64,000 nt of DNA from Flectonema sp. DT1601 (lineage: Eukaryota): positions 372,001-436,000 of the forward strand of contig OZ025797.1 of assembly GCA_964019425.1 (NCBI GenBank), written 5' to 3'. Below the pieces are notes generated by a model. It saw only the letters and a list, made by a program, of their open reading frames with translations. It made no database searches and was not told the origin of the DNA. Below, piece after piece: positions 3,161 through 62,819 of this stretch. The stretch's first letter is position 1, and the number at the start of each line of letters is the position of its first letter. Made by a program: the position numbers and the translations under genes.

Positions 3161-4444
3161 ATGAAGGTAAATGTAAGGAAAAAGCAATTCCTATTTATGA
3201 TAAGCCTGTTGGCTGCAGGATTTATAACTTCATTAGTTAGTTCCTTGGGTGCTACCAGAGGGATTGTCTCACCACAGTCATCGAGTATGACTGCTAGAAG
3301 TGGCTCAACTACATTCAAGCCAAGGACGACTAAAATATTACCAAACAGAATTGTTAGTAGGAACTTCTCAAGTAAGCATTTAGTAGTTTCGCACTTTAAA
3401 GAAAGCTTACAGTGGCTTAATGAGGGATGGGGAAGCGACTACACACACACGGTATATGAAATGGGACGTGAGAACGGAGTCATTCCTGACTTCAGTGACA
3501 GCTACACCCAACGATTAGAAGAAGATGGCAGCCGTTATTACTTAACAAATTGGGGAGATGAGAGTAGTGGATATTTGAGATTTATTATTGATTACTACGA
3601 CGATCTCCCTGATATAACCGTATTCCTACACGATGCTCCTGAAAAACACAACAGAGAAATTAAAAAATGGATTCCATGTCTCCGTCCTGACACGTGGTTC
3701 ACATACGTCACACGATCGCGAATAGAAAATCGTTGTATTATCGACTCAAATGATCAGTCACTTGTCCCAAAATTTGATAACGGAGCCTTTGTAGACTATT
3801 GGTCAAGGTTTCCTTGGGGTGAGTTAGGTTTGTCAAGAATTCCGCGTTGTTTATCATTTTATTGTTGTGCTCAATTCGCTCTTTCTAGGGAAGCGATTCG
3901 ACATCGTCCTCTCAGTTTTTATAAAGCATTGTGGTCGCTTACTGTGAACTATGTTCTTGATCAGAATATTGCTAGAAAGTTTAAGGGTTGGTCTCTGAGA
4001 CAGATTGGAGGTGTTTTTGAACATTCATGGCATGTGATATTTGGGGAGACGATGATGATGAGTCCTTACAACTACTGCGATTACTATAAGTCATCTTGTG
4101 GTCCTTGTAGTGGTAAACAGACAGAAGCACTTCCTCCCAACAACCCAGAGTCAGAAAATCATAAGATTATTGGTATTCGCATATCTGAAGCTTGGCTTGC
4201 TCCGAACTGCCATCAGCCAAAACCAGCGGAGGCTTCAGATTTTCTCAAAATTGTTAAAACTGCTTGTGATTCTCACAATTATTGTAACTTTAAAATACCA
4301 GCAACACCAATTGAAGGATGTCCAAGTGACTATTCTTTTATTGTTATTTGGCTATGTCCTGATCGAAAGGAGCGAAGCCTAACAATTTCATCGGTTGCGA
4401 TGCAACAAACAGCAGTACTGAGCTGCGACGGTAAAGCTACATGA
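3161..4444 (+). CDS. DUF3431-family type II membrane protein with Cys-rich (SUEL-lectin-like) C-terminus
   Basis: N-terminal TM segment. Motifs NWGDESSGYLRFIIDYYDDLPDITVFLH, CCAQFALSREAIRHRP..FY and FEHSWHVIFG. U-rich tract and AG shortly before the ATG. Confidence 0.75.
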   Translation: MKVNVRKKQFLFMISLLAAGFITSLVSSLGATRGIVSPQSSSMTARSGSTTFKPRTTKILPNRIVSRNFSSKHLVVSHFKESLQWLNEGWGSDYTHTVYEMGRENGVIPDFSDSYTQRLEEDGSRYYLTNWGDESSGYLRFIIDYYDDLPDITVFLHDAPEKHNREIKKWIPCLRPDTWFTYVTRSRIENRCIIDSNDQSLVPKFDNGAFVDYWSRFPWGELGLSRIPRCLSFYCCAQFALSREAIRHRPLSFYKALWSLTVNYVLDQNIARKFKGWSLRQIGGVFEHSWHVIFGETMMMSPYNYCDYYKSSCGPCSGKQTEALPPNNPESENHKIIGIRISEAWLAPNCHQPKPAEASDFLKIVKTACDSHNYCNFKIPATPIEGCPSDYSFIVIWLCPDRKERSLTISSVAMQQTAVLSCDGKAT

Positions 4445-11637: not shown

Positions 11638-14600
11638 ATGAAGAAGTCTGCTGGTAGGCTAGCACCCTTGTACCCAACTAAACAAATCTCACAAGATGGT
11701 GTAGAACTATTTCGTTCTTATGACTTTAGTGAAGATCGAATCAAGAGATCAAATCGAGTTGATTCTCGACCACGTCTTGCGATTGAATTAGAAAACTTCA
11801 TCGACACCGAAATGAGAAAGTTAGGAGTTCATAATTGGAGAGAACCACCAACAGTAAAACTAGTAACACCAGAGAGATTATCAGTCTTTGAGACCGCATT
11901 GCGACTCCTTGGTCTTCACTTCACTCCCTACACAGAACTGTTTGATAGTATTATAAGGGAGTACAAGACTTACACAGAACTTCACTGCAGTGGTACTAAG
12001 AAATTACAACTTACAATGAAGTACCTTGACCAAACATACGCTAGAAGTGTTGAGGCAATTCAACACGCATCCGAAGTAACTTCACAGCAATACCAACGAG
12101 CGACTGAAGAAGCAAAACAAAATGAAGAAAAACACAAACAAGAAGCGGAAACTCTGAGTGAAGATGTACAATTATGGAAAACCAAATCCAGAGAGAACCT
12201 AAACAGAGCTTTGTTCCTCCAAACCGTTGTGGATGAGCAGAAAGAAGAACTTCAGCGAGAGCGGCAACACTCATTAAATTTAGAAACAACCGTCAGAGAA
12301 CACAATATCAAACGTACGGAACTCGGTGAGCTTCAACAGGCCTTTGAATCAAAAAGATATTTACTGGCATTGGAAAGAGAGAAACGAGAATCAGCAGAAC
12401 AGCTGGCTGACGAACTAGAGTTGCAGCTGTCACAAGCTGGTAGCAGTATTAAGAAACTCCAGAGAGTCTCTAAAAAAGCAACTGAAAAGCTTCGAGTTAC
12501 TAACTCTGAAAACACCCACCTCTCCACACGTCTTAAGGATGCAGCCCATGAACTCTTACAGTGTCAGTCAGGTGATCCAGTAGTTAGTGGTTCAGGTATG
12601 GATTATTTATCTTTTCAATTTAAGACTCAAATGAATAAGTACAGCGTCGTCTGATGTTGTATAAATTATGTTTTGTTTCCATCGGATGGCCTTAGGTCAT
12701 CAGAATATAAATATTATCTCTGATGCGTCCTTCTTTCATCGTCTCCATTTTTTCATTTTCTTTTAACATTATTACGCTTTTTATTTCTTTCTTTTTATAC
12801 GACTTTCTACACTTTCTTTCTTTCTTTCTTCCTCCTAATGATGTGAGTAAATGATTAGTTGACCCCAAAAGGGTGTTTATTTATTTAAATTGGAGGTAAA
12901 CTGCCATGCCATGGTCCTTGTTACTACATTAGATGAATCTACACAGCGACCTTGCCAATAAATAAATAAAACCTTGCTGCTTTCTGTACTTTATTGATTT
13001 CGCAACCTAATATTGGTAAGAATCAGTGGGTACGTTTCACAGGAAAAGCAATTATGAGAGACAACCTGAGGAGGTTAGTATCGGAGGCTATGAACCTCCT
13101 GAAGATGGTGGGAGATGATGGGATCCCCGAGTATGAGAAAGAGAAAAGAGTAGCGAATCTCCTGATGGAGGTTATCCAGTTCGTGACGGGGTCGGAAGGT
13201 GGGAACCCTGAGATGAAAAGAAGAAGACCGGACACTCCCGAAGTGGGTGGTGGGACGGATGCGACCGCGACGGCAACCGAAGCGACGGCCCCAACCGCAG
13301 GCAGCAATCAACCGACAACAGAGGCGTCTACAGCTTCTAATCAACAGACAACATCGGCACCTAAACAATCAACCTTTTCGTTTCCGCTGCCTGTACCATC
13401 ATCAACATCGACTAAACAAACCACAAAGGGGAATGCTAAAGCAAGCTACCCGGAATGGCATGTACACGGCGCGTGGGCGGGCACTGTGTCTACAATCAAC
13501 TACGACGTAGCAGCGAATGCTACCAACAATCTCGCATCGGGTCTTGTTTTAGTACGCTCTAAACAGGACTGGGAAGCTCTCCGTCAGACAAAGAAGAGTG
13601 GTCGATGGGCTGCAATCAGCAAAGTACCGCTAACCAAAAGCACGGTGCCTGTCGCCATACCGGTGATCAAAAAGGGTGGTGTCTGCGAAATCAGACGAGT
13701 CTTCTACACGCATATCTGTGGTGAAGATTTTTCCAAAGCCACATCCGAAATTCAACATCCGACACCCGACCCCGTCTTGTTTGTTCAGGATTGGGGCAAA
13801 TCAAGTGAAAAAGATCTAACGATCAAAACAAAGGAACTGCTAAAAAAGAAAAAGATTAATGCAGCCCCTTTCAGTTACAAACGAAATGATTCACATTCCT
13901 CAATGGCTATTAGAATTCCCAGAAACCAAGTACACAAGATTCTGGAGTTTAACAATAACGACCCGGAGACCGACAAACCTAAGAATGTATTTGTCAGAAA
14001 CCCGAGCTGGTCAAATGGAAGCGATGTCTGGCCAACTCTTCAATTCAATAACGATCTTGGATTCTTGGCAGCAAAGTCCAAGACATCAATACTGGAAGGT
14101 TTCGAAGGTAAATTCTACCTGTGTAAGTTCAAAACCTGTTATGGACTCCGAGTTCATCCCGACTGCAACACTGAAGTGCGTATTAAGTTAAGCGCGTCAC
14201 TCAAACCTGCACTGCCTTCCGGTGACAGGTACATTATAAAATCAATGGCGATACGGAAATTCTCAACAGCGCAGATCAGCGACTTTATGAAGTCCTCTCA
14301 CAACTGGGAGCACACAGTGGTCGCATCGTTTAACAAAGGTGGAAGCACTACGATTGTGGCGATTTCAAACACGCAGCCTCCCAACTTCGTGAGCATAGGC
14401 ACCAATGAGTACCTTGTGATAAACAAGGAAGTTAAGAAAAGTGACAGAAAACCGCTAGGCCCAACCTACAACCCAGGCGACGCGGCTCAAAAACTGACAG
14501 GAACCCTGAAGAGACAGAAGACAGCTCCTCAACCACAACAACCAACTCAGCTACCACATCAGACGGCAGCAGCACCGACACCAGCGCCAGCACCCACACC

Positions 14601-17600
14601 AGCATCAGCTCCACCACCCACTGAATCTGCTGTTAAACAAGAAGGTGATAAGAACGGCGATGTTGAAATGGAAGATGATGACTCGGATTTTGACCTCAAC
14701 TGACTAGATGAAGATGACGATGATTTAAATCCGACCAACTCACTCACAGAAAAGAATACGGCTCGTGAACTGCTGCTTCAGGCAGGCGATGTCGAACGCA
14801 ACCCTGGCCCTGACGACTCCCTCATATCACTACTAAGCTGGAACTGTCGATCGATGGGGAACAAAGGTGCCTACATACACAAGCTGCTCAATGCCTATGC
14901 GCCTGACGTACTGTGCCTGCAAGAAACTTGGACAAAAGATGTAGTCTCACACACGGATTATTTTACCTATCGGAATGATAGGGCAACACGGGGTGGTGGG
15001 GTTATTACTATGGTGAAGAAATGCCACACTCAGCAGCGTTCTGATATCGTACTTCCGCCTCACTTAAATGATGTTGAAGTTGTAAAGGTCAACATAGGTG
15101 GAAAGATTGACATCTTAAATATTTATGCTCCCCCGGGATGCAAGATCAGAAAGTCAGATCTTCCAGTCTCAACGAAAGCAATCGTCGCGGGTGACTTTAA
15201 TGCCCATCATCCGGTGTGGTCATCAAAATCGACGCCAGCAGGTTCTACTCTACATGAATGGGCAGCACACAATGATCTACTGGTAGCCAACAAGATGGGG
15301 TCAATCACAAGGCCTTTTCCTAATATCCCGGGGGGCGGTACCTCGCCGGACGTAGTATTTTTTCAAAACTCGATGATTCTGGAAGAATTCTCTGTAATTA
15401 GAGAAGATAATAAACATGGATCTGATCACCGACCTCTCTACACCGTACTGGATCCCATGTGTCAACTTACACGTGCCACGATAGGTTCTAAGAAACGTGT
15501 GGTGTGGGACTTCAAGTCTACGGACTGGAACTGCTTTGGAAATATGCTCGATAAGAGAATTAGAAAATCGAAACTCTCCAACGATGCAACTGCGAATGCT
15601 AAGCTCTTTAACAACATACTGCATGAAGTGGCGGCTAAATTCATTCGTCGACGTGTCCTTTTCAAAGGGAAACGGAGACGAAAGTGGAAGACGTCAACAC
15701 CTGATTCTACCAAATCGAAGGGTGTCCACCTACGTGATCAACTTGACAAGGGTAACAACTTTGCCTTCGCGTTTAAGAAGATCAAAGAACTGCAACAAGA
15801 TGCTGGTAAAGATATCAGTGTCAACAACATCTCCGACTGCGACCTACCATCAGCATTCTTGGACCTGTTTGTCTCGAAATCGGAAATATTATCGCTAGAG
15901 GCCCCCGCACTCTCAGAAGGTGATAATGAAATAGATATTTGCTGTGATTTCACAATGGCTGAAATTAAAGCTGCGATTAAGAACCTGAAGACCCGCAAGG
16001 CTGCAGGACCTGATGGAGTTCACAATGAGATGATCAAAAACTTCACTCCGGCAACAGTGGAATACCTCCTGAGAATTATTAACACTTCCTGGAAGACTTC
16101 AAAAGTACCGTACCAATGGAAACAGGGACTAATCAAGCCTATGTTCAAGGCTGGAAAACCTCGAAATGAACTGAAGAGTTTCAGACCCATTACGCTCACA
16201 TCGGTTGTTGGGAAACTTGCGGAGAGGCTCGTGTATGACCGACTCATGCACTGGCTCACTAAACATTCGTCACTCAGCCCACTACAGGCTGGATTCAGAA
16301 GGGGGAGAAATACCTGCGAACAGATCACCGTTTTGGTAGATGCCGTCGTAAGGATGCACATGAAGAGAAAGAGATCGGTGTTCTTATCGTTTGATTTTAC
16401 TGCTGCGTTTGACAGGATCAACCATAAGATACTTTTATTAAAATTGGTAAAGATGGGTGTTCCGAATGTTATTATCAGATGGATCACAGACTTTCTTACA
16501 AACAGGAAGGTTAGAGTTGAAGCGAATGGTTATCTTAGTGAATTCCGTACTCTGGCTAAGGGGGTTCCACAGGGATCGATCCTGGGTCCTCTTCTTTATC
16601 TTATCTACGTTGATGACCTCTGCAAGATTTTGGAACTGGAGAAAGAAACAACGACGTCTGCTCTGTATGCGGATGATACAGCATGTGTAGTATCTGGACA
16701 TAACATGGAAGAAGCTCTTTCAAATGCTCAAATAATACTTGATAAAGTGGATCAATGGTGTTCTGACAACGACATGGCCCTGTCGGTCTCAAAGACCTGT
16801 GCTCTTAAGATGAAAGTCCGTACGAAGGATACGATTCTCAACGACACCTGCAATCGCGAATTACTATTTTCCAGATCTGTTGTGGAAAACGTTATCAAAA
16901 TGGACTATAGTGACATTGAAAAGAGTATCAACTTAAACTCTTCTAGACCCATGCTTCAAAGCGGCGAAACTATTCTCGAGGTTGATGGAACTCCGATCAA
17001 AACGCAAGACGAACTTGACAACGTGATGTTGCGGAATATTGTTCTCGAAAACAACGTGATGGTGGTGAAAGCCAGATTTAAAACCGCATTTCTGTTGCCA
17101 ATCGTGGACTCAGTGAAATACCTCGGAGTTCACATCGACGACAGACTCACTTTCCACAAACAGGTGGCTAAGATTCATGAAGAACTGAAAAAGGGAATAT
17201 CTCTGCTTCAATGCCTTCAACCGTATGATCTTGACTACAAAACGCTAAATATGGTCAAGAACCTTTACGTAACTGCGAGAATCTCTTATGCGCTCGATAG
17301 CTTTGGTTGGTTGATAAGCAACAGCGTTGATAGTATTGATTTCGAACTGAGGAAGGTTGCCAGGCTGGTTACTGGATGCAGCAGGTGCACACCGAGAGAA
17401 CTTCTACTGTGGGAAGCGGACATGCTTCCCTTTAAACGTCAGATCGAAAAGCAAACCAAGATAGCGTACTACAGGTATAAAGCCATGACTTGGATACCTA
17501 GTACCAACAGACTCGCCTCAACCCAAAGCTACTGGGCTGGCCTCCTTCCTGGCATTGACAGCCAGCGTGAAAGCCAGTGCCTTGTACAGCCTGACTCGAT

Positions 17601-20600
17601 GGAACCCTGGGTATCTCCGACAAACCTTAGGATTAGCAACGGCTGCGGATTTCCGAAGTCCGCGAACCCTGCGGTGGACAAAGAAAAATTCATGTCGTAC
17701 ATTGGAACGTTACCTCCTGTCGACATGTTAATCAACTGCGATGGCTCCTACTCTGCTTCCGGCGCGGCCGGAGCGGCTCATATTGCCAAGTCACGTAGCG
17801 GCCTTCGATCTGCTTACGCGTCTAGGCTCTATCAAGCTGACTGCAGCTACAGGGCTGAACAACATGCTCTGAAGAACGCGGCTAGACATCTGAGAACAGT
17901 GTTTAGCAAAGATCCTTCAATGAGATCTGTAAGGCTATTCACGGACTCAAAATCCCTTCTGGATGAACTGCTGGGTGGAAGGTGCAGACAGAGGAATACT
18001 GAGTCCCTCAAGATACTAGAATACCTGCGCATGTGTGAAATGAAAGTGCATTTGCAATTCATCCCCTCGCACATTGGAATCGAGTTTCACGATGAAGTTG
18101 ACGCGCTTGCAAAGGAAGCAGCGCACAACAAGAACATCCGACCTGTGCTAGTCAAAGGCACTTACTTCTCGCGATCATCACATGTTAAGCGCTGCATCAA
18201 AAAGGATCTGCTTAACGTGAGTGGCTACACCTGCTACAAACACCTCATCGGAGGCCGTTCCGTTAAATACCCTCCTGGGATGGAAAGAGCCGACGAGATA
18301 CGGATAGCGAACTTCCGGACAGGATGTCACCCGCTAATTCAGAACTGGCGCAAAAATATCGACTGCCCATTTTGTGGCGAACCGTCCTCACAGGTTCACC
18401 TGCTGCAGGGATGTCAATCTCCCAAACTCGACTCGGCCAGGTTCAAAATCCTGGGCTTCTCAACACTGACCGGCAAGTGGGATCGCGATCGGGAACTTAT
18501 TATTGCCAACGAAATTCCTAACCTTGAAGCCCTCTTCACTTTGGCGTGGCTTCCATCACTCGCGTTGATCATAAGGTGGATGGAACAGACATCTAACCTT
18601 AGACTTTGGAAATAAAGTAGGTGACATGTAGTCGCCAATATCAATTTGTTATTATTTTAGTATTTCCATCATTATCAATCATCTCCTGGTTGGGTGACTG
18701 CACATCACCTTCGGTGTTGTCGCAGTGTCTCATCCAACACTCCTGTCTCCTTCTTCTCCTATTCTCCTTTAAATTTCTCTTGAGGGCAGGCCTTCGGGCT
18801 GTTCAAGTGGTCTTTGACCACCGCTCTAGTTATATGCTCGATTCTTTGTTTTCCTTATCGATGGTAGGAATGGTAACCGAATTAGCTTCATGTGTCCAAT
18901 TTCAAGGACGCGTGACCATTTATTTTTTTCCGTTGCCGCTCTTCTTACGTCCTCAGGCGGAGCCTACCTATGTTTCCCGTGTTTTCCAATTTGTCAGACT
19001 TAAACCAAAAGAAAGTATAAAAGAAAGACAAAACATAGAAGTGAAAAGAACAAAAACAAAGAGTTTGGTAGCACAGACGAGTGTAACCAAAAAAAAAAAA
19101 AAACCTTGCCCATTCAAGACCATTTATTTTTTCCGTTGCCGCTCTTCTTACGTCCTCAGGCGGAGCCTACCTATGTTTCCCGTGTTTTCCAATTTGTCAG
19201 ACTTAAGTTAAAAAGAAAGTATTAAAGAAAGACAAAACATAGAAGTGAAAAGAACAAAAACAAAGAGTTTGGTAGCACAGACGAGTGTAACCAAAAAAAA
19301 AAAAAAAAAAAAAACCTTGCCCATTTTATAGCGCCCGTGGTGTAATGGTAGCAGCAGCAGTCAAATAAACAGGTCTGTAGCCAGGCCTTGTATGCGTGTC
19401 CAGGTTCGATTCCTGGCGGGTGCGATTTTACCACCCTTAAAAACATTATTTATTTATCTATTTTATGCCATAAACAAATTATTTCTGTGCACATTTCATC
19501 ACTCGCGGTAGTTTTTTTTTTTTTTTTTTTGACCTCTAATTTGCTGAGCAATAGTTGTTATATTCCTTGGTGATCCATCTATCGATCCCGACACTGTTCC
19601 AGAAACATGAATGAACAAGTCAATTCTGTTATAATTCTCTTCGATGGATCTGCATAAGAAGTTGTATTCGACACAGCACTCAATGATATGATAGTCGAAT
19701 CAGAAAAGAAACCTTCAGTGATAATGGTGTTGTGTATTTCAAACTAACTGACGACGTAATAAAACTATCTTGTGAAGTATTGTTGTCATCAGAAAGTGGT
19801 GATGCTCTTCACTTATACGATGCAAGAGATAGCAGTGATTATTTAACAGTTAACGTTTACGTTTCGAATAGGAATAGCGAACCTCTATCTTAGCCAATAT
19901 GGGATGTTCAACTATCATCAGTTTATAATAATAATAATATTGTTTGAAATCATCAACCAGTTCATCTCAGGGGGATTTGGGAACTCCAATTTCGCGTTTC
20001 TTTGAAAAAGTAGAGTGAAATGTGCACAGTCGTAATTTTAATTTATGGCATTAAATAAAATTAAACGGTTAAGTTGACATACTTTGTAATAATTATCATC
20101 TCATACAGTGATGCCCCCCCCCCCCCCCCCCCCCCCCCACTCGACGATACTTTCTCTGGTAGTTTATTTAAAGCATGCGATTTTGTGTGGACAGAATCCA
20201 GTTATAATGATTCATGTCTAATTTGTTGCGTGTTAACCCCCCTTGATTTATTTATCCAAATCCCCCCCCACTCGACGATATAATAGAACTGATCAGAGAT
20301 GAGTTTATCAACTTAAGCATCCCTAATTGATACTCATGTGTATTTTTTTTTCTTTTTTAATTAGCAAACCAAAAACAATAACCAAAAAAAAAAACTAAAT
20401 CAGGAACAAGTAAAACACTAACTCCTCGACCAAATTGGAAATGTGATGTACTAATTGATGTTTTATTAAAGGAAGTTGAAGAACCTGCCGGTAGAGAGTA
20501 TCAACAGTCGACATCTGCTAAAAAAGACAATCAACTACAAGTACCTGATGCTAATAATCCTACAGAAAAAGAGGGTATGGCAATGCATGCTGCTGATGAA

Positions 20601-25877: not shown

Positions 25878-27596
25878 ATGCGACCTCTGCTTTGGTTATT
25901 AGTATTCGCATCACTGATCTCTTCCTCAAATGCAGTTCAGATTGAGACTAGAGTTTTTACTGCGGAGTTTTCAGCGAGTGATGAAAACTTTAATATGTAT
26001 GTTGAGCTTCAGAACAGTGGGGACGTAATCTTTGCGGGATTGACTGGCCAAGTCTTCGGAACACGCGATTCAACTGTGACAGTGAGCACTGACCCATCAC
26101 TGCTTTCACCGTCGATAAACCCGCTTCAAATAAGTAGAATTCTTATTCGGCCTACTCTCGAGGGTCGCTCAGAAGACGGTGACGGACTAACTATTCGTAG
26201 TACAATAGAACTATTAACACCAGGTGTGAGACAAGGTAGAATTCCATTCACATGTTATTACCACAATCAGGGAGTACTGAATCCTGCAGTACTTCCAACT
26301 GTTATCATTGACTACTTCCATTCAGCAACTGATTCATTTGCTGAATGTTTTTCTCCATACACAATAACGGAAACTGCATCATTAACTGTAACGAAATCCT
26401 TAACTGTTCCACTTGATTATGCCCTTCCAGAGTTTGCTGTTGACGAAGGCTCAGCACTCGAAGGGTCGCAGTCGGAACCTGCGGTCGCTTCCTTCGCTGA
26501 TGGCGGAGTTGTTGTTTGTTGGACTTCTCAAAATCATGAGTTAATGAGAAGATATGAATTTAATATATTTTGCTTAATGTTTGATGTGACAGGAGCAGAG
26601 CAAGGATCTAAATTTCAAATTAACTCCAACACTTTGGGAACACAGCAGTCTCCTTCAGTAGCTGTCCTTCAAGGGAATTCTATTGTTGTTGTATGGAACA
26701 GTGACCACCTGTCGGGTCACAACGTTATTTCTCGTCAGTTTGACAACGGAGTTGCGAATGCTGAAGGAGAAGTGATTCACAGTGCCCATCTCGCTTCAGG
26801 AAAGAAGACATTGCCTGATGTCGCCAGCATCCCTTCAACTAATTATTTTGTTATCTGTTGGCAATCTTTTGGCAGTGACGGTTCATATTTCGGAGTTTAT
26901 GCTGTTCGTCATTCTGTAGGTGAGAGTAGCGTTCCGTTTCTGGTAAACACCGCGACGCAGTGGGATCAGACGGATGCAAAGGTTGCTTGCTTCACTGACG
27001 GTGGGTATGTAATTACTTGGGGGAGTTATACTACTGGCACTGCTAGTGACATATTCATGAAGAGATACAACGCATTGGATGTTGCTCAAACTCCTTCGGA
27101 TGAAAAGGTAAACTCGGATGACGCGAATACCGAACGTGCTCCAGCGATTGCGAGATTCTCTGACAACACATTCATGATTGTGTGGGTTAGGATTACTACT
27201 ACTGATTCGACATTATGGGCAGCAACATTTGATGCAACAGGTTCTCAGGTTGTAACTGAATTCCGTGTTGACACCGATGTCGGTCTTCGAGTTCGCAACT
27301 GTGACATCGTAACTTTGAATGATGACACAGTTCTTATTACTTGGGGAGCATCAAACGCTGCTGGTACTAGTTTCGGAACATATGCTCGTCGCTTCACTCG
27401 AATTGTTAGTGTTTTGCCTGCGGAATACCAGAATCAGTTTCTTATTAATGAAAACACTGCAGGAGAGAAACTAAAACCCAAAGTTGAGAAGTTTGGTCCT
27501 TGGGGATTCTTCATCACGTGGCAAACTACTGATCCGAATTCTGAAAGTGACGTTACTGGAAAATGGTACCCCGAATATAAACCAATTCTTTTTTAG
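25878..27596 (+). CDS. Secreted repeat-domain protein, paralog 1 (572 aa)
   Basis: Signal peptide MRPLLWLLVFASLISSSNA. C-terminal repeats of type F.VN...Q..P.VA...G..VV.W. Confidence 0.85.
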   Translation: MRPLLWLLVFASLISSSNAVQIETRVFTAEFSASDENFNMYVELQNSGDVIFAGLTGQVFGTRDSTVTVSTDPSLLSPSINPLQISRILIRPTLEGRSEDGDGLTIRSTIELLTPGVRQGRIPFTCYYHNQGVLNPAVLPTVIIDYFHSATDSFAECFSPYTITETASLTVTKSLTVPLDYALPEFAVDEGSALEGSQSEPAVASFADGGVVVCWTSQNHELMRRYEFNIFCLMFDVTGAEQGSKFQINSNTLGTQQSPSVAVLQGNSIVVVWNSDHLSGHNVISRQFDNGVANAEGEVIHSAHLASGKKTLPDVASIPSTNYFVICWQSFGSDGSYFGVYAVRHSVGESSVPFLVNTATQWDQTDAKVACFTDGGYVITWGSYTTGTASDIFMKRYNALDVAQTPSDEKVNSDDANTERAPAIARFSDNTFMIVWVRITTTDSTLWAATFDATGSQVVTEFRVDTDVGLRVRNCDIVTLNDDTVLITWGASNAAGTSFGTYARRFTRIVSVLPAEYQNQFLINENTAGEKLKPKVEKFGPWGFFITWQTTDPNSESDVTGKWYPEYKPILF

Positions 27597-28651
27597 TTTC
27601 TTTTTTCAATTTATTTCTTATTGATTTTCAAGAACATAATTGAAACGAGGAGTCATTCATTCAGTTATCTCAAGGCGAATAGTGTTTTTATAATGGTGGT
27701 TAAGATTTTTTCTTTTTTTTGAATTCTTTTTTTCCCCCCAACTGTATAAAGTCGACCACCTTTTATGCTATTGAGTAAACTAGCTGGATTTGCCTCTTGA
27801 CGGATATCCTAGAGAACTGTACTTTAAGGTCTGTTTCAGTTCTACTTGCGCTGCTTCCCATGTTCCCCTTACCTCTGCTTAGTATTATTTTTTGTTGCTG
27901 TTGTTGTTGTTGTTGTTGTTGTTGTTTTTCTGGGTGATGCTTTCACTTGATTAATCTCTCTTTTTATATTGTAAGAAAACTTGTCTTTTGTTTGCAATGT
28001 AAAAAAAAAAAAAACGAGAAATAATAAAACGAGTGTGTCGCTTAAGCATCTTCAATTTGCGATGCTTGTTATTAAAGTTGAGAGTAAGTGTAAATTTGTT
28101 TTCGTTGTTGTTTTCGCTTCGGCTGATACTACATTGCTGAGAAAACTACTATTTTATTTTGTGGTATAACCCCTACCAACAATCGATTTTTTTTTTTCTT
28201 TGCGAAAAGTAAAGAATCCTTTAGACAAATACAAATATCTTTTTTTTCGATATTAATTTTGTTTTATAAATACCTAAAATTGTTACTGTTTTTACATAAT
28301 CGAAATATCAACTTCCCCCTCTGCCCTTGTGACAGTACTTTTATTGTTTTCCGTATTCTTCCCAGATAGATCTTTTCATATCTTATCAAATTACCCCCCA
28401 GTCCAATTAATATAATTGTTAAGGAATTATTTATTTATTGACAAACTATGATGAAATCAACTCTCTGCTGTAATCCATTGTGCCCTGGTTTTGGTTTCTC
28501 AAGGCTCGCGGTCGATTCCGTACTGCACTGAATGACAAGACATTCTTTTACGATATTTGCAGAGTGTTTAACTTTAGTCAGCTGCGTCATAAATTACTAA
28601 TTGTTTATATTTATTAACTTTTCATGCAATGCAACCTCAAATAAAGTATCA

Positions 28652-28962
28652 GTTCACCATGGGTTCACCATGGGTTCACTATGGGTTCACCATGGGTTCA
28701 CCATGGGTTCACTATGGGTTCACCATGGGTTCACCATGGGTTCACCATGGGTTCACCATGGGTTCACCATGGGTTCACCATGGGTTCACCATGGGTTCAC
28801 CATGGGTTCACTATGGGTTCACCATGGGTTCACCATGGGTTCACCATGGGTTCACCATGGGTTCACCATGGGTTCACTATGGGTTCACCATGGGTTCACC
28901 ATGGGTTCACCATGGGTTCACCATGGGTTCACCATGGGTTCACCATGGGTTCACCATGGGTT
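28652..28962. repeat. 11-bp minisatellite (CCATGGGTTCA) x ~28
   Basis: Tandem units read directly; four CTATGGGTTCA variants. Confidence 0.97.
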
Positions 28963-30573
28963 AACTGAGTTACCTCAACAGTGTTGGTGGGAGTATGGAT
29001 TACTCTCGAAAAAGGTGTTGTTGAAATCTTTTTCTTTCTTTTCTCGTCCCTTATAATTCTTTGGCAGTGAAAGCTTCACGTCACAAGATAGAGCTTAATG
29101 TAAGTGTTGCTGCAGTTGGTAGTTTCTGTTTTAGTGTCGTACGGCTGGTGCGGCTTTTCCGTTTCCTTTCCCTTCAGTTTCACGGACTGGTGCGATATGT
29201 CTCGATAAAAGTTTAGTTCTGTTCTTCTTTAACCTTTGTACTGTGGGGGTTCCCCCACTTGTGCGTGCTACGAACTTTGTTTAATATGATCCAATTCGTG
29301 CAGTTGTATTTTACAAATTCAAACATTCAACCCTACGTGTATGTTACGTTCCGGTAAATGATATCTTTTTTCGCCACAAGGCGTGGGACGTTTAACCTGT
29401 AGCACGTGGCCTTTCCGAATCCCCTTTCTCGACATTTATGGGATTTTATCGATACCAACTGTTGGTATTTACAATCTAGTAACCAGGTTTGGCCGAACCT
29501 ATTTTAGTTTTAGCCAGTTCGGGTTCCTTAATATTGATTACAATATCAAGTTGCTCTTCCTTTTTATTTTCTAATTTTTTTTTTATTCGGTCTTGCAGAC
29601 GTGATGTGGTGTTCTTCACTGAGTGGTCATCACGAACTTTTCAAAAAAAAAAAAAAAAAAGAACTTTCTACCAGTTTTTTTTGAGAAAGAAGAAATTAGT
29701 TTGGATTGCTTTCACGCAAAGAGACTAACCCAGTCGCTCCACCAGGTCCTCGGGTATTCCTTGTTGCTGCACGTCGAGACAACGATCGAGAGAAATTATT
29801 TCGCATTCGTGTATTTTAGAATTCTGAGAGTCTAAGAACAGAGTTTCCATTTTATATTACGAAAAAAAAAAAAAAAAAAACAGCAACCAGCAAACAAAAA
29901 ACAAAAATGATTAAATCATATGAGTCTCACCGAAAGTCAGACTAAACAATTAGTCTAGACTCATCGTTTAGTTTGCCTTTAATCCAACTGAGAGGTTTAC
30001 TCTCCATCATGTATTTTGTTAATAAATAAAATTAAAAAACAAACCAAGCAAGCAAGAAATCGAAAAGTCAGTATTAACTACTGCAATCGAAGATTCTCCG
30101 AGAGTAAGTCTTTTATTAGGACCATCTCTTTGTGATTACTTTCTACTAATCAAAAAAGAAAAAGTGATATGAATTATCCGTTTATTGAGATAAGAGCAGG
30201 CGATACACTCTCCTGTCGAATTCAAGTCTCTCTGGACCCATGATAATATGATTGGGATTATGTGTGTGATAGCGTCCTCAAAGTAATGAGCCTGCAATCA
30301 ATTCTTTTTAATGAGAACATAAATTATTAAATTCCAACTCAAATATTTCTGAAAACACAAATGTTTATTTTATATTAATTTTATTGTTGGAATTAAAGGG
30401 TTTTCTCATGAAGTTTTTATTATTATTTCATTCGTGTTGTCGTTCTCTCTTTTATTGTTCTTTTCTAGACGATAGCGAGCTTCACTCGCAATTTATTTTA
30501 TAATGTTTTCCCACAACCCTTTTCTGTTTTGTTTATATTTCTGTCAGAGTTGTTGTCAGCCCAATTTAATTAA

Positions 30574-34087: not shown

Positions 34088-35941
34088 ATGCGACCTCTGC
34101 TTTGGTTATTAGTATTCGCATCACTGATCTCTTCCTCAAATGCGCTTCAGATTGAGCTTACAGTTAATTCCGCATGGCCTTCAGCAGAGCGAATTAAAAT
34201 TCGTGCTACGGTTCAGAACGGTGCTTCGCAAGATCTAGGACAAGCTACTTTTACTGGGTCAGGCAATCCAACTGTGATATTGAACTCAGGATCACAGCTT
34301 CCACCGTCGACAAATCCGCGCGATATAACTAAAATCCTGTTCTTTTTTACTGCCGGCAGAACGACAGATGGTCCCAGAGTAATTATTGATAGTACAATAC
34401 AACTATTAACACCAGGTGTGGGACAAGGTAGAATTCCATTCACATGTTATACCTGGGCAGGGGGAAGCCTGAATTCTGGATTGCTTCCAAATGCTTACTT
34501 ACAAGACCTCGCTACAGGACGTGATACATATCCTGAGTGTTATCCATACGTAACGGGAACTGAATCCTTAACCGAGACATTAACTAAATCATTTACGGTT
34601 GGATCATTAACTGAAACACTATCTGTATCGAAATCCTTAACTAAATCATCAACTGAAACATTAACTGCAACGAAATCCTTAACTAAATCATCAACTGAAA
34701 CGCTAACTGTATCAAAATCCTTAACTAAGTCATCAACTGAAACATTAACTGTTCCACTTGATTATGCCCTTCCAGAGTTTGCTGTTGACGAAGGCTCAGC
34801 ACTCGAAGGGTCGCAGTCAGAACCTGCGGTCGCTTCCTTCGCTGATGGCGGAGTTGTTGTTTGTTGGACTTCTCAAAATCGTGAGTTAGTCAGAAGATAT
34901 GAATTTAATATATTTTGCTTAATGTTTGATGTGACAGGAGCAGAGCAAGGATCTAAATTTCAAATTAACTCCAACAATTTGGGAACACAGCAGTCTCCTT
35001 CAGTAGCTGTCCTTCAAGGGAATTCTATTGTTGTTGTATGGAACGGTGACCACCTGTTGGGTCACAACGTTATTTCTCGTCAGTTTGACAACGGAGTTGC
35101 GAATGCTGAAGGAGAAGTGATTCACAGTGCCCATCTCGCTTCAGGAAAGAAGACATTGCCTGATGTCGCCAGCATCCCTTCAACTAATTATTTTGTTATC
35201 TGTTGGCAATCTTTTGGCAGTGACGGTTCATATTTCGGAGTTTATGCTGTTCGTCATTCTGTAGGTGAGAGTAGCGTTCCGTTTCTGGTAAACACCGCGA
35301 CGCAGTGGGATCAGACGGATGCAAAGGTTGCTTGCTTCACTGACGGTGGGTATGTAATTACTTGGGGGAGTTATACTACTGGCACTGCTAGTGACATATT
35401 CATGAAGAGATACAACGCATTGGATGTTGCTCAAACTCCTTCGGATGAAAAGGTAAACTCGGATGACGCGAATACCGAACGTGCTCCAGCGATTGCGAGA
35501 TTCTCTGACAACACATTCATGATTGTGTGGGTTAGGATTACTACTACTGATTCGACATTATGGGCAGCAACATTTGATGCAACAGGTTCTCAGGTTGTAA
35601 CTGAATTCCGTGTTGACACCGATGTCGGTCTTCGAGTTCGCAACTGTGACATCGTAACTTTGAATGATGACACAGTTCTTATTACTTGGGGAGCATCAAA
35701 CGCTGCTGGTACTAGTTTCGGAACATATGCTCGTCGCTTCACTCGAATTGTTAGTGTTTTGCCTGCGGAATACCAGAATCAGTTTCTTATTAATGAAAAC
35801 ACTGCAGGAGAGAAACTAAAACCCAAAGTTGAGAAGTTTGGTCCTTGGGGATTCTTCATCACGTGGCAAACTACTGATCCGAATTCTGCAAGTGACATTA
35901 CTGGAAAATGGTACCCCGAATATAAACCAATTCTTTTTTAG
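34088..35941 (+). CDS. Secreted repeat-domain protein, paralog 2 (617 aa)
   Basis: Same signal peptide and near-identical C-terminal ~395 aa as paralog 1. Different N-terminal domain and a 14-aa Thr/Ser linker repeat (TETLTVSKSLTKSS). Confidence 0.85.
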   Translation: MRPLLWLLVFASLISSSNALQIELTVNSAWPSAERIKIRATVQNGASQDLGQATFTGSGNPTVILNSGSQLPPSTNPRDITKILFFFTAGRTTDGPRVIIDSTIQLLTPGVGQGRIPFTCYTWAGGSLNSGLLPNAYLQDLATGRDTYPECYPYVTGTESLTETLTKSFTVGSLTETLSVSKSLTKSSTETLTATKSLTKSSTETLTVSKSLTKSSTETLTVPLDYALPEFAVDEGSALEGSQSEPAVASFADGGVVVCWTSQNRELVRRYEFNIFCLMFDVTGAEQGSKFQINSNNLGTQQSPSVAVLQGNSIVVVWNGDHLLGHNVISRQFDNGVANAEGEVIHSAHLASGKKTLPDVASIPSTNYFVICWQSFGSDGSYFGVYAVRHSVGESSVPFLVNTATQWDQTDAKVACFTDGGYVITWGSYTTGTASDIFMKRYNALDVAQTPSDEKVNSDDANTERAPAIARFSDNTFMIVWVRITTTDSTLWAATFDATGSQVVTEFRVDTDVGLRVRNCDIVTLNDDTVLITWGASNAAGTSFGTYARRFTRIVSVLPAEYQNQFLINENTAGEKLKPKVEKFGPWGFFITWQTTDPNSASDITGKWYPEYKPILF

Positions 35942-36369: not shown

Positions 36370-36703
36370 TTGTTTGTTTATTTGTGCCATAGGTTTCAGC
36401 ATCAGTATTGGCTGAGGCTATAAAATGGTCGACCCCGGATTTCCTACCGTATTATTAGTGTTCTCTTTGGAGGATCTACGTAACTAATATTCGGTGATTG
36501 TTTAGATCCTCTAATTGATTCATAATGATCATTTCTTTATGATAACTCAATAATAATATTGATTACACTAGTTAGTTATCTGTGAATGAGAAGTTTATAT
36601 TGTTGATATGTTGTGTTGCATCACTAATCTTTCATATCTTACAGGCTTCACACACTACGATGTGGCGCCCTGAACGGGATTGCAAGAAGATACCAGTTAG
36701 CAC
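36370..36703 (+). pseudogene. Duplicated upstream region and first codons of the PTP gene
   Basis: Near-identical to about 42308-42641. Encodes MWRPERDCKKIPVST, then breaks off. Confidence 0.8.
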
Positions 36704-36804
36704 TTTGAAACTCACGAAGAATTTTATTATTATTATTTTACTTTTAATCCAACTGGGAGGTTTACTCTCCGACATGTATTTTGTTAATAAATAAATAAAA
36801 TTCA

Positions 36805-37360
36805 AAACAAACAAACAAACAAACAAACAAACAAACAAACAAACAAACAAACAAACAAACAAACAAACAAACAAACAAACAAACAAACAAACAAACAAAC
36901 AAACAAACAAACAAACAAACAAACAAACAAACAAACAAACAAACAAACAAACAAACAAACAAACAAACAAACAAACAAACAAACAAACAAACAAACAAAC
37001 AAACAAACAAACAAACAAACAAACAAACAAACAAACAAACAAACAAACAAACAAACAAACAAACAAACAAACAAACAAACAAACAAACAAACAAACAAAC
37101 AAACAAACAAACAAACAAACAAACAAACAAACAAACAAACAAACAAACAAACAAACAAACAAACAAACAAACAAACAAACAAACAAACAAACAAACAAAC
37201 AAACAAACAAACAAACAAACAAACAAACAAACAAACAAACAAACAAACAAACAAACAAACAAACAAACAAACAAACAAACAAACAAACAAACAAACAAAC
37301 AAACAAACAAACAAACAAACAAACAAACAAACAAACAAACAAACAAACAAACAAACAAAC
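36805..37360. repeat. Perfect (AAAC)n microsatellite, ~139 units
   Basis: Uninterrupted tetranucleotide array of 556 bp. Confidence 0.98.
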
Positions 37361-39457: not shown

Positions 39458-41269
39458 ATGCGACCTCTGCTTTGGTTATTAGTATTCGCATCACTGATCT
39501 CTTCCTCAAATGCGCTTCAGATTGAGCTTACAGTTAATTCCGCATGGCCTTCAGCAGAGCGAATTAAAATTCGTGCTACGGTTCAGAACGGTGCTTCGCA
39601 AGATCTAGGACAAGCTACTTTTACTGGGTCAGGCAATCCAACTGTGATATTGAACTCAGGATCACAGCTTCCACCGTCGACAAATCCGCGCGATATAACT
39701 AAAATCCTGTTCTTTTTTACTGCCGGCAGAACGACAGATGGTCCCAGAGTAATTATTGATAGTACAATACAACTATTAACACCAGGTGTGGGACAAGGTA
39801 GAATTCCATTCACATGTTATACCTGGGCAGGGGGAAGCCTGAATTCTGGATTGCTTCCAAATGCTTACTTACAAGACGTCGCTACAGGACGTGATACATA
39901 TCCTGAGTGTTATCCATACGTAACGGGAACTGAATCCTTAACCCAATCCTTAACTAAATCATTTACGGTTGGATCATTAACTGAAACACTATCTGTATCG
40001 AAATCCTTAACTAAATCATCAACTGAAACGCTAACTGTATCAAAATCCTTAACTAAGTCATCAACTGAAACATTAACTGTTCCACTTGATTATGCCCTTC
40101 CAGAGTTTGCTGTTGACGAAGGCTCAGCACTCGAAGGGTCGCAGTCAGAACCTGCGGTCGCTTCCTTCGCTGATGGCGGAGTTGTTGTTTGTTGGACTTC
40201 TCAAAATCGTGAGTTAGTCAGAAGATATGAATTTAATATATTTTGCTTAATGTTTGATGTGACAGGAGCAGAGCAAGGATCTAAATTTCAAATTAACTCC
40301 AACAATTTGGGAACACAGCAGTCTCCTTCAGTAGCTGTCCTTCAAGGGAATTCTATTGTTGTTGTATGGAACAGTGACCACCTGTTGGGTCACAACGTTA
40401 TTTCTCGTCAGTTTGACAACGGAGTTGCGAATGCTGAAGGAGAAGTGATTCACAGTGCCCATCTCGCTTCAGGAAAGAAGACATTGCCTGATGTCGCTAG
40501 CATCCCTTCAACTAATTATTTTGTTATCTGTTGGCAATCTTTTGGCAGTGACGGTTCATATTTCGGAGTTTATGCTGTTCGTCATTCTGTAGGTGAGAGT
40601 AGCGTTCCGTTTCTGGTAAACACCGCGACGCAGTGGGATCAGACGGATGCAAAGGTTGCTTGCTTCACTGACGGTGGGTATGTAATTACTTGGGGGAGTT
40701 ATACTACTGGCACTGCTAGTGACATATTCATGAAGAGATACAACGCATTGGATGTTGCTCAAACTCCTTCGGATGAAAAGGTAAACTCGGATGACGCGAA
40801 TACCGAACGTGCTCCAGCGATTGCGAGATTCTCTGACAACACATTCATGATTGTGTGGGTTAGGATTACTACTACTGATTCGACATTATGGGCAGCAACA
40901 TTTGATGCAACAGGTTCTCGGGTTGTAACTGAATTCCGTGTTGACACCGATGTCGGTCTTCGAGTTCGCAACTGTGACATCGTAACTTTGAATGATGACA
41001 CAGTTCTTATTACTTGGGGAGCATCAAACGCTGCTGGTACTAGTTTCGGAACATATGCTCGTCGCTTCACTCGAATTGTTAGTGTTTTGCCTGCGGAATA
41101 CCAGAATCAGTTTCTTATTAATGAAAACACTGCAGGAGAGAAACTAAAACCCAAAGTTGAGAAGTTTGGTCCTTGGGGATTCTTCATCACGTGGCAAACT
41201 ACTGATCCGAATTCTGAAAGTGACATTACTGGAAAATGGTACCCCGAATATAAACCAATTCTTTTTTAG
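39458..41269 (+). CDS. Secreted repeat-domain protein, paralog 3 (603 aa)
   Basis: Almost identical to paralog 2 but one 14-aa linker unit shorter. Confidence 0.85.
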   Translation: MRPLLWLLVFASLISSSNALQIELTVNSAWPSAERIKIRATVQNGASQDLGQATFTGSGNPTVILNSGSQLPPSTNPRDITKILFFFTAGRTTDGPRVIIDSTIQLLTPGVGQGRIPFTCYTWAGGSLNSGLLPNAYLQDVATGRDTYPECYPYVTGTESLTQSLTKSFTVGSLTETLSVSKSLTKSSTETLTVSKSLTKSSTETLTVPLDYALPEFAVDEGSALEGSQSEPAVASFADGGVVVCWTSQNRELVRRYEFNIFCLMFDVTGAEQGSKFQINSNNLGTQQSPSVAVLQGNSIVVVWNSDHLLGHNVISRQFDNGVANAEGEVIHSAHLASGKKTLPDVASIPSTNYFVICWQSFGSDGSYFGVYAVRHSVGESSVPFLVNTATQWDQTDAKVACFTDGGYVITWGSYTTGTASDIFMKRYNALDVAQTPSDEKVNSDDANTERAPAIARFSDNTFMIVWVRITTTDSTLWAATFDATGSRVVTEFRVDTDVGLRVRNCDIVTLNDDTVLITWGASNAAGTSFGTYARRFTRIVSVLPAEYQNQFLINENTAGEKLKPKVEKFGPWGFFITWQTTDPNSESDITGKWYPEYKPILF

Positions 41270-59997: not shown

Positions 59998-62819
59998 ATG
60001 CGCTCTGCCGTCAGTATCCGTTCAAACAAGAGGGCTGATTCTTTTCGGCAACGGAGACACAAAGTAAATTTAAAATTCGGTGGTAACAATAGATACCAGT
60101 TTTGGGTAGAACCGGGTGCTGATAAGAAATGGACAACAATATATTGGGGAGAGCACATGTTTGATGAGAACATGGTAGGTCACAATACACATTGGACTGA
60201 TCCAATGCCGAGCTCCGTTCCTGGAGTAGAGGAATTCGGAATTAAAGACGACCCTGATATCGCTCCTCCAGGAGCCTACGCTGGAGTAAACAGAGAATGG
60301 AAAGGACACAAGCCATCAAAGGTAACTGGAGGATACTACGGTTCAGGCATGGCAATCAGAGACACCTGGGGTCCCGATGCTGAATATATCCCTTTTGGAT
60401 CCCAAGCAAAACCAGAAGTTTACCTCGACCGAGTTTCCGTTGATTATTTTCTAGACGAGTTTAGCGTCCCCTGCAACAAAGAAAATACGGTAATGAAATC
60501 TTGTGAGACAAAACACACAACTAATTTACGTGTTAACATTCCCCAATTTGATAATCAATTAGACACAAGTACACTACGAACACTTCATAAGCAACTATCT
60601 CAGTCAACTACTTCAGTTGATAAAAGGATTACTATGATTGGTGCTTGTCAAAATGGTAAATCTGAGTGGTGGTGTAAAGGAAGTCCTACAGCAGAATTAG
60701 CAAAGAGTCTGAGATGGTTAGTTCATCCACCACCACCTCCAACTCAGAATATGGATAGTGATCGTAGTGATCAGGTTAAGAGAATTGCTGAGATTCTAAC
60801 TACTCAACGACAGACTCCAAATCCTGATGTTGAACGTGAAGAAGTAGCAGTTCATGGATCTCTTCAAGGTAATCCTGATGACGGAGGTGAATCAGTTAGA
60901 ATTCTCCACGCAGCTAATAAACAAGCAAGATGGCTTGAAACTCAAGAACGAGCAATATCAACGTCATCAAAACTCGCAACACCAAAAGCTGTTGAAGCCG
61001 TTGCTGAGAATCTCCGATGGGGACTGAGAACAGTATCAACTCTCTCAGCTGGAGGCAGCCCAACTCTCTCTTTTGTAAACGGCAAAGCTCACAATATTGG
61101 AGCAGGCATAGCCGTCTTATGCAACTTTGCTGCACTCAGAAATGAAGCAGAACTGACTTACAGCGGAGCTGCTGCAGGCACGACACCTATCGGAGGACTC
61201 TTAAGATTGTTAACAGACCCTGCATGTGATTTAAAGTATCCAGGTCTTGCTGAGTATATTACTCTAACAGGTGATATGCTTTGCTATGGTGATGCTCGTA
61301 GACTGGGCTGGACTGCTGTATACGCCCCTACAGACATTCAGCTAAATGAAAGAATGGTCCACGACTACATGAATATGCACGGTCCAGGACAGGATAGGTA
61401 CTCAAAGCGTATTTTAGATAATTTATTATTTAATGACAACGATATAAATCCTGACCAAGATCGTTGCTCGATATCAGCAGCTAAAGCTAACTGGATTAGA
61501 GAAGCATTTGAAGGTAAAGAAAGTATGACTTCTATTATAGAGGCTCTTACTGATATGTCATTAGACTCTTCTTCTAATTCTGAAGAAGAGATTGATATTG
61601 TTAAAACCACATCTATGCCAACGGACAACACGGATGAGACTACTCACGCTGTTGGAACAGTTGTAGTAACTCGTCAACAATGGGCTACTTATGTTCTTCA
61701 GTTATTAAACACCTACTCTCCTATGGCTCTTAGCGTAACTCTCGCAATGGTTCGCAAGGCCCGCGCAGAACGCCTCTCTCTCGAAGGATGTCTCTCTTTG
61801 GAGTTCAGATGTCAGATGCGAATGGTAGCCCGCAGCGACTTCATCGTGTCGCAGGTATGATTTTATTTTTGTATTTCCCCCTCTGGTTGATTCAAGTGTT
61901 ATTGTACCTGACAAAATTGATGTAAAACAAATAAACAAACAAACAGCTCTGCAGCGGTGGTATTTCCGACAACGAATGGCCAATAGCAGCAAGTGACTGG
62001 GACGCTCAGAACAACAGACCAGCGTGGTCACCATCATCACTGTCGGAGGTATCATCTGCGGAGGTAAACAGAATTATAAACACTCCTCTTGACTGGACAG
62101 CTGATGGTACTACAGAACTAGACGTCCGCGTAGAGAGAGATGGTAGACGTGGAATCAGAAAAGCTGCTCGAGATCACGGATTAGATATTGTTCCTGGACT
62201 TGGTGAGGATCCAAAAATAAGCACACCTGAAACTGCTTACTTACCTCAAAATATAAATATATACAAAACTGCTAGACATCCACAAACTGGTTCTATTGGA
62301 AGTGAACGTTCTGACACCGTCCCAGCAGCTCAACAAGAATATAAAAAACAGGTCCTTGAAGAAGCAAGTTCTCGAATTGAAAGAGGAATGGGAAGGAAGT
62401 TTACAAATAACTCTGAAGCGATTCTTGGATTCCGAATGAGTGATTTCGGAGAGACTCCAAGAGAGAAACAAGTGAGAGAAGGGAAACTTCAATGGGATCG
62501 CCACAGAATAGTAGCAGAGCATGCCTCTAACCCAGAATCATCTAAGTTTATTAAAAGTGGTATTGATATGGGTGGAGAAGCTATTCTATCACCAGGTGGT
62601 GGTGGAAGATATCGTGATCCAACTTTACCTCGTCACACTCCAACATTCGGAGATATACCAGATCATAAAGCATCTATTTTAACACATGCTTATACTGGTC
62701 AAGGATTCCCAAAACCTGTTCGTAATTGGGACCTTGCGAATCAATTTTCTGTTAGAGAAACTGCAAAGGGAACTCCGAGTGATCAAATCGCAAGTATGAT
62801 CGTTCAGAATGATTTCTAA
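59998..62819 (+). CDS. HIBCH / enoyl-CoA-hydratase-fold protein (candidate mitoribosomal mS47), join(59998..61854,61947..62819)
   Basis: PTLSFVNG, EYITLTG..L..GDA..LG and SPMALSVTL..R..SLEGCLSLEFR...DF. After the 92-bp GT-AG intron the frame continues NRPAWSPSSLSEVS..EV (HIBCH-like C-terminal motif) and is in phase with the 62388 ORF. Confidence 0.7.

Follow-up and report, generated by a model that had tools for sequence, protein, structure and literature searches.

A repeatedly used insertion site upstream of a tRNA-like gene

The window analysed here comprises 64,000 nucleotides of Flectonema sp. DT1601 (assembly GCA_964019425.1, contig OZ025797.1, forward strand, positions 372,001 to 436,000) and contains two copies of a long interspersed nuclear element (LINE), a full one and a 5'-truncated one, which are stacked immediately upstream of a tRNA-like gene (Table 1; positions are those of the window). 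The heptamer ACCTTGC starts at 12949, 12971, 19103 and 19314, in the last three cases behind an A-rich run, exactly as an earlier note on this DNA had located it. Further copies are present at 62731 (+ strand) and 42053 (- strand), at a chance expectation of about 2.5 per strand; ACCTTGC alone is not rare, and what lies beyond chance is its register at the four junctions. The 12-mer ACCTTGCCCATT is found in the window at 19103 and 19314 only. The 3' junction is common to both copies and is located 17 bp upstream of the tRNA-like gene (16 bp if the shared A is assigned to the tail); the distance of 10 bp stated in the earlier note applies to the end of ACCTTGC and not to the insertion junction.

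Over 175 shared bases the 3' ends of the two copies differ at six positions: a T-run is changed by 1 nt, a single insertion is clustered with three substitutions, and a further substitution stands apart from these. Read as peptide, the 3' variant of the long copy recurs in four tails of other family copies (see below; designated by P numbers), and the short copy is one base away from a variant present in eight tails. The short copy furthermore possesses a target duplication of its own of 10-12 bp. A head-to-tail layout that adjoins homopolymers might suggest that a local duplication took place later or that the assembly is in error; given the six differences, the variant at other loci and the separate duplication, we regard such an origin of the 199-bp copy as very improbable. 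In target-primed reverse transcription, the first nick corresponds to the 3' junction, and the second sets the length of the duplication. Here, the first nick would have fallen at a fixed 3' junction and the second at varying distances from it. The shared 3' junction and the duplications of 7 and 10-12 bp support the view, already put forward from the sequence, that both copies are independent insertions into one 3' junction with a variable duplication length. Each insertion would have occurred at the tRNA-proximal site, pushing the older copies upstream and leaving the newest one closest to the gene. For the 14-bp (AATA)n piece, a third event and a by-product of the 5' junction have even odds; (TTTA)n directly 3' of the tail is also seen in P0233 and P0239.

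The tRNA-like gene was recovered in an Rfam scan by E-value and was absent from both the whole-window Rfam gathering scan and ARAGORN. The 7-bp acceptor stem, the A box (19338-19349), the B box (19403-19413) and the T arm are intact and followed by T4, and the anticodon arm is non-canonical, with about 23 extra nt and no assignable anticodon.

Probable tRNA genes behind the tails of other copies

The flanks of other copies were read from a protein collection, in which spurious open reading frames (ORFs) run through the 3' untranslated region (UTR) and the poly(A) tail into the flank. A search with the open frame of the 3' UTR yielded 23 such proteins and their clusters another 19, 39 of these 42 having the end motif of the element; the remaining three (P0227, P0231 and P0252) were dropped and two chance finds (P0172 and P0265) were added, resulting in 41 tails, one of them that of the window. 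Tails of at least 13 aa (n=27) were tested for an A box at 8-26 nt from the tail and a B box at tRNA spacing, using consensus patterns of the two boxes and counting distances from the last full Lys codon, which may conceal up to two extra A's. As controls served 185 peptides read behind A-runs of the window and 200 shuffles.

Of the 27 tails, 13 had an A box and 13 a B box; at least one of the two was present in 15 tails and both were present in 11. The corresponding counts among the 185 control peptides were 15, 8, 20 and 3; the shuffles gave both boxes in 0.26 cases on average and in two at most. The difference for both boxes (11/27 versus 3/185) corresponds to a Fisher p of 5e-9, or 2e-7 after merging two possibly allelic pairs, which leaves at least nine different gene bodies. 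All eleven lie on the same strand as the element, at distances of 13, 13, 14, 16 (seven tails) and 19 nt. A complete cloverleaf (31-33 of 33 points, ARAGORN call) was obtained for six of 20 tails of at least 26 aa and for none of 40 controls (maximum 27.5); the six bodies differ from each other, and their anticodons, which stem from optimised back-translations, are not firm. Of the 14 tails (of 41) that were too short for the box test, two have an A box, located at 15 nt in one and at 18 nt in the other.

The first residues behind the tail vary from copy to copy. ACCTTGC, which the earlier note had taken to be the target, does not fit directly behind the tail in any of 38 other copies and thus fits only in the window's own peptide (1/39), in accordance with its being the duplicated sequence of the window locus. 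The proposal that insertion is site-specific and directed to the vicinity of tRNA genes, in contrast, was borne out by these translated flanks. [quoted passage not shown] In the translations, 11 of 27 tails show such a similar distance, with 16-17 nt in the window, next to different genes and with no shared target sequence. Insertions of the family thus appear to lie 13-19 nt upstream of numerous different tRNA genes and in the orientation of these, and we consider it very probable that this represents position-specific targeting of tRNA genes.

Stacking is common, as six of the 27 tails continue into a further element: that of the window itself, four in which the next element starts with a spliced leader (SL) piece, and one which enters a sister family. 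Truncated copies of three sister families (P0158, P0172 and P0184) start directly after a poly(A) run, indicating that mixed-family stacks exist. The same tRNA-like body with an identical 16-codon spacer was observed in P0252, P0256 and P0305, on three contigs, and in P0305 body and spacer run into the ORF1 of a sister family. This sister family may reside just downstream of a tRNA gene or may bear a tRNA-like head.

Irregular arms together with both promoter boxes are found in the gene of the window, in P0236/P0237/P0241, in P0248/P0249 and in P0225/P0246. The genome may harbour a set of multi-copy tRNA-like polymerase III genes. For the gene in the window, a selenocysteine or type II tRNA was ruled out by eye, the extra hairpin being located within the anticodon arm, and likewise a UGA suppressor, as a proper loop is lacking.

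Architecture of the element

Reading from its 5' end, the element consists of an SL remnant, a leader of 57 nt, ORF1, the stop context UGA-CUAG, 27 codons, a 2A-like motif, an endonuclease (APE), a reverse transcriptase (RT), RNase H-type motifs, a finger, the 3' UTR and poly(A).

Table 1. Features of the insertion stack, the element and the tRNA-like gene in the window.
Feature	Position	Strand	Basis or reading
Outermost copy of the target duplication, 8 bp	12949..12956	+	Sequence
(AATA)n insert, 14 bp	12957..12970	+	Tiny third insertion, or a by-product of the 5' junction
7-bp duplication of the target 5' of the full element, then a 3-nt stutter	12971..12977	+	Sequence
SL remnant, 3'-terminal 16 nt of the SL exon	12981..12996	+	Identity to several euglenozoan SL types
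ORF1, 549 aa, ends with UGA	13054..14703	+	No Pfam family
In-frame stop, context UGA-CUAG, separating ORF1 from the ORF2 frame	14701..14707	+	Sequence
ORF2 frame, 1303 aa	14704..18615	+	Pfam for APE and RT
2A-like motif GDVERNPGP directly 5' of the endonuclease	14785..14811	+	Sequence
APE	~14833-15438	+	Pfam
RT, YADD at 16666	~16162-16824	+	Pfam
RNase H-type acidic motifs	17737-18102	+	Alignment with family members
CX2CX7HX4C finger, CCHC-type	18364-18414	+	Sequence motif
Full element, 3' UTR with poly(A) tail	18616..19102	+	Sequence, alignment of 3' ends
Target duplication separating the two copies, 10-12 bp	19103..19114	+	Sequence
Second copy, 199 bp, 5'-truncated, with poly(A), different sequence variant	19115..19313	+	Sequence
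Native 17-bp leader of the tRNA-like gene, with the 3' junction of both copies at 19314	19314..19330	+	Sequence
tRNA-like gene, 94 nt	19331-19424	+	Rfam tRNA, 31.7 bits (gathering score 29), E 0.0012

The SL remnant was identified by comparison to the euglenozoan SL exons tabulated in PMC3795323, and a 16-nt match has a chance of 2.5e-4 per window. The stacked copies P0222, P0228 and P0265 begin at the same SL position, the 12 nt at the end of the remnant can be accommodated in three of 41 tails compared to none of 268 controls, and P0230 contains nine repeats of a 9-nt piece. Judged by these remnants, the RNA template was likely trans-spliced, and since the element is in addition co-oriented with the gene cluster, we infer a trans-spliced polymerase II transcript. 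In a new copy, the former SL junction lacks an acceptor AG; the SL may persist either by means of a few master loci, or by recopying of the remnant along with the element, or by a jump of the enzyme to a free SL exon.

ORF1 gave no Pfam family, no usable Atlas match and no Foldseek match at E 0.001. A single confident domain of the order beta-alpha-beta-beta-alpha-beta, resembling RRM or ACT, is predicted for residues 238-318 in a model with a mean pLDDT of 47, and the best VIA Z of 7.1 was reached equally by RRM, ACT and helical hairpins. An RNase H family match was obtained for seven of 11 aligned ORF2 members, the protein of the window not being among them, and its acidic motifs align with theirs. 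The Atlas neighbours of ORF2 are unnamed APE-RT-RNase H clusters, with no integrase family among the ORF2 matches, and whole-window and E-value scans of Rfam gave no ribozyme match at the 5' end. The 2A-like motif is also present in P0121, P0002 and P0004. A sense-strand frame of the 3' UTR (18621-19211) that stays open for about 160 codons is broken by homopolymer indels in other copies and probably spurious.

The nearest named relatives are transcripts of Flectonema neradi, with 41-52% identity for ORF2 and 48-50% for ORF1; a 14-member cluster of Diplonema papillatum is a distant relative of ORF1 (E 7e-5). Together with the SL remnant and the one-strand layout of the long ORFs, these relatives point to a euglenozoan, and likely a diplonemid, as the host. 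ORF2 belongs to a protein cluster of 101 members, which has four sister clusters of 26-74 members each; families were also seen together on contigs of the same length. A metagenome scan with the 3'-end pattern gave no match; a second one with a protein profile led to 158 pattern matches and a scan of viruses to 21, none of which was confirmed.

Access to ORF2

From the stop of ORF1 up to the first motif of the APE there is no AUG, GUG or UUG, and the first AUG in the ORF2 frame, at 14854, is located within the APE. The stop is retained in 21 of the 28 family ORF1 sequences listed, the other seven being broken earlier, and a contig piece of the public run X4 covering 14634-14784 shows no difference from the window, stop included. 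Among the 31 ORF2 differences shown for run X2 (40 of 89 rows), 21 codons are synonymous and six non-synonymous; the two subfamily branches of ORF2 carry 21 and 22 residue changes, with 45 unresolved. ORF2 is, on the reading of its codons, under purifying selection.

In mammals, readthrough is efficient in the context UGA-CUAG (PMC4132726), and it might be speculated that ORF2 is reached by readthrough of the UGA, for which we see slightly less than an even chance. Several observations point the other way: the sister subfamily and two further families have an in-frame AUG before the 2A motif; the +1 frame past the stop reads M-K-M-T-M-I-stop and resembles the start of the sister family; near-cognate ACG and CUG codons are present; and no strong RNA structure was found 3' of the ORF1 stop. 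Reinitiation is a rival to readthrough. In seven of eight ORF1 types, Flectonema neradi contributing two of them, Asn is the last residue before the ORF1 stop (14698-14703), which hints at conservation of the stop context. A genome-wide recoding of TGA was ruled out: the TGA-ending ORFs listed besides ORF1 are those at 4444, 12654, 61860 and 63923, and besides ORF1 and the 4444 ORF three of 20 listed host ORFs end with TGA.

Discussion

For Ty3 and TRE5-A, tethering to tRNA genes involves TFIIIB (PMC5911963). Both the stack in the window and the position of the family 13-19 nt upstream of tRNA genes probably result from docking of the element on the polymerase III machinery at the tRNA gene rather than from the reading of a DNA motif. 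By analogy, TFIIIB/TFIIIC would be the inferred docking site and ORF1p, as in TRE5-A, a candidate for the dock, and we consider tethering as the overall mechanism to be likely. As the internal promoter of the tRNA gene survives an insertion, the site can be hit again.

Some observations weigh against this reading. Five of the 27 tails (P0221, P0224, P0233, P0244 and P0255) failed the box test, as did P0256, which has a relaxed tRNA-like fit; two of the five appear tRNA-like by eye. Seven box-positive tails (P0225, P0236, P0237, P0241, P0246, P0248 and P0249) do not fit a rigid cloverleaf. The evidence from other copies is conceptual translation, probably of one assembly, rather than DNA; gene callers prefer long GC-rich flanks, which inflates the share of tRNA-adjacent copies, and the test is blind to copies which face away from the tRNA gene. 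Four public runs yielded small element pieces at low depth (rows of poly(A) repeats excluded) and neither a joint, nor an empty allele, nor a 3' flank; no RNA data set with the element was among those listed. Finally, the stacked junctions in P0172, P0222, P0230 and P0265 show little or no duplication between the copies, which fits template jumping instead of re-targeting; template jumping may thus also build arrays.

The same positional targeting would be obtained without any protein tether if the endonuclease cuts melted or bent DNA at the start site of polymerase III. The second nicks, as inferred from the duplications, lie 5-10 bp upstream of the mature start and near the tRNA transcription start, which is located about 10 bp upstream of the mature start (PMC5911963), and a DNase I-like recognition of structure has been suggested for L1Tc (PMC5814959). 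However, the one-sided orientation is more easily explained by an asymmetric protein dock, and the two elements named above both use TFIIIB, so that we consider cutting without a tether unlikely. Alternatively, insertion might be untargeted, and copies beside tRNA genes survive as they are least disturbing to a polycistronic unit. The window is a gene-dense one-strand cluster, with 16 ORFs of at least 300 aa on the + strand and none on the - strand, and several tails have no tRNA gene. Survival alone, however, would not yield a window of 7 nt, a single orientation and the repeated use of one base position, and we regard this explanation as highly unlikely. An endonuclease specific for ACCTTGC, as the four junction copies of the heptamer at this locus might suggest, is scarcely conceivable given its absence behind the 38 other tails and the two chance copies in the window that carry no insertion.

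In position the element is similar to Ty3 of S. cerevisiae (about 15 bp) and DGLT-A of Dictyostelium (13-33 bp upstream of where the mature tRNA starts), which use many tRNA species (PMC5911963, PMC5006619). In contrast to these elements, which have long terminal repeats (LTRs) and an integrase and insert in either orientation, it is a non-LTR element with APE-RT, primed at poly(A) and seen in one orientation. Similarly, TRE5, a Dictyostelium LINE of the L1 clade, is a non-LTR element with two ORFs located upstream of tRNA genes, with several elements per gene; yet TRE5 inserts 40-54 bp upstream in opposite orientation and has no RNase H listed, whereas here the distance is 13-19 nt on the same strand, and RNase H motifs and 2A are present. 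NLTR-A of Dictyostelium purpureum, a non-LTR element with RNase H, is likewise found a very short distance upstream of tRNA genes, but at 2-6 bp, and is unplaced among known clades. Thus, the element is like Ty3 and DGLT-A in position and like TRE5 in chemistry, and a member of neither; a LINE at a Ty3-like distance and in the orientation of the tRNA itself appears to be a new geometry.

The term Ingi-like in the earlier note is appropriate for the enzyme order, with 2A before APE, RT and RNase H; poly(A), short duplications and a euglenozoan host are shared with Ingi/L1Tc as well. It does not extend to the number of ORFs, Ingi having a single one and the present element the separate 549-aa ORF1. 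Ingi has the promoter-ribozyme Pr77; the 5' end here comprises the SL remnant and 57 nt, with no ribozyme match in Rfam. Ingi furthermore has C2H2 fingers instead of one CX2CX7HX4C motif and a loose upstream motif as target instead of tRNA genes, and L1Tc transcripts are unspliced (PMC1874656). The element therefore resembles Ingi in enzyme order and departs from it in ORF number and finger type. CRE, SLACS and CZAR differ by a restriction-like endonuclease (RLE) and insertion into SL RNA genes, as compared to APE and a tRNA-like flank. DNA-encoded SL remnants that mark copied trans-spliced RNA have been described as relics on dinoflagellate retrogenes (PMC12014239), which are host genes, while here the autonomous element itself is marked.

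The cases of tRNA-gene targeting in Table 1 of PMC5911963 and in PMC5006619 are fungal and dictyostelid only, as far as the accessible text goes, and the accessible parts of PMC12278014, PMC5814959 and PMC10161547 do not mention it; one supplementary row names a 76-member Tbingi group. In the literature accessible to us, with Repbase and subscription papers outside the search, we found no report of tRNA-gene targeting in Euglenozoa, nor of readthrough combined with 2A or of an SL-capped LINE. If true, Euglenozoa would represent an independent origin of tRNA-gene targeting in a third eukaryotic lineage, and the element would show how a mobile element can spread in polycistronic genomes without breaking genes. 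The docking factor would become testable, and the element would be a candidate for an RNA-templated system of insertion into safe sites.

2A usually accompanies the loss of ORF1, with few exceptions in CR1 (PMC3894237, PMC3708506). The layout of ORF1, stop and 2A is at odds with this reported link and bears on the open question of how ORF2 of LINEs is translated. Tentatively, and at less than even odds, it might be hypothesized that a diplonemid lineage of LINEs without a promoter of its own is copied from SL-trans-spliced mRNA, docks at polymerase III starts of tRNA genes with a precision like that of Ty3 but by target-primed reverse transcription, and translates ORF2 by UGA readthrough followed by 2A StopGo, which would free ORF2p from ORF1p.

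Host context of the window

The G+C content across the window (1-64000) is 39%, and the genes are apparently intron-poor. Three near-identical host ORFs with internal repeats and without a Pfam family are located at 25878-27596, 34088-35941 and 39458-41269. In addition, (AAAC)n is repeated over a long stretch at 36654-37360, and a tandem array with a unit of 11 bp is located at 28581-29031.

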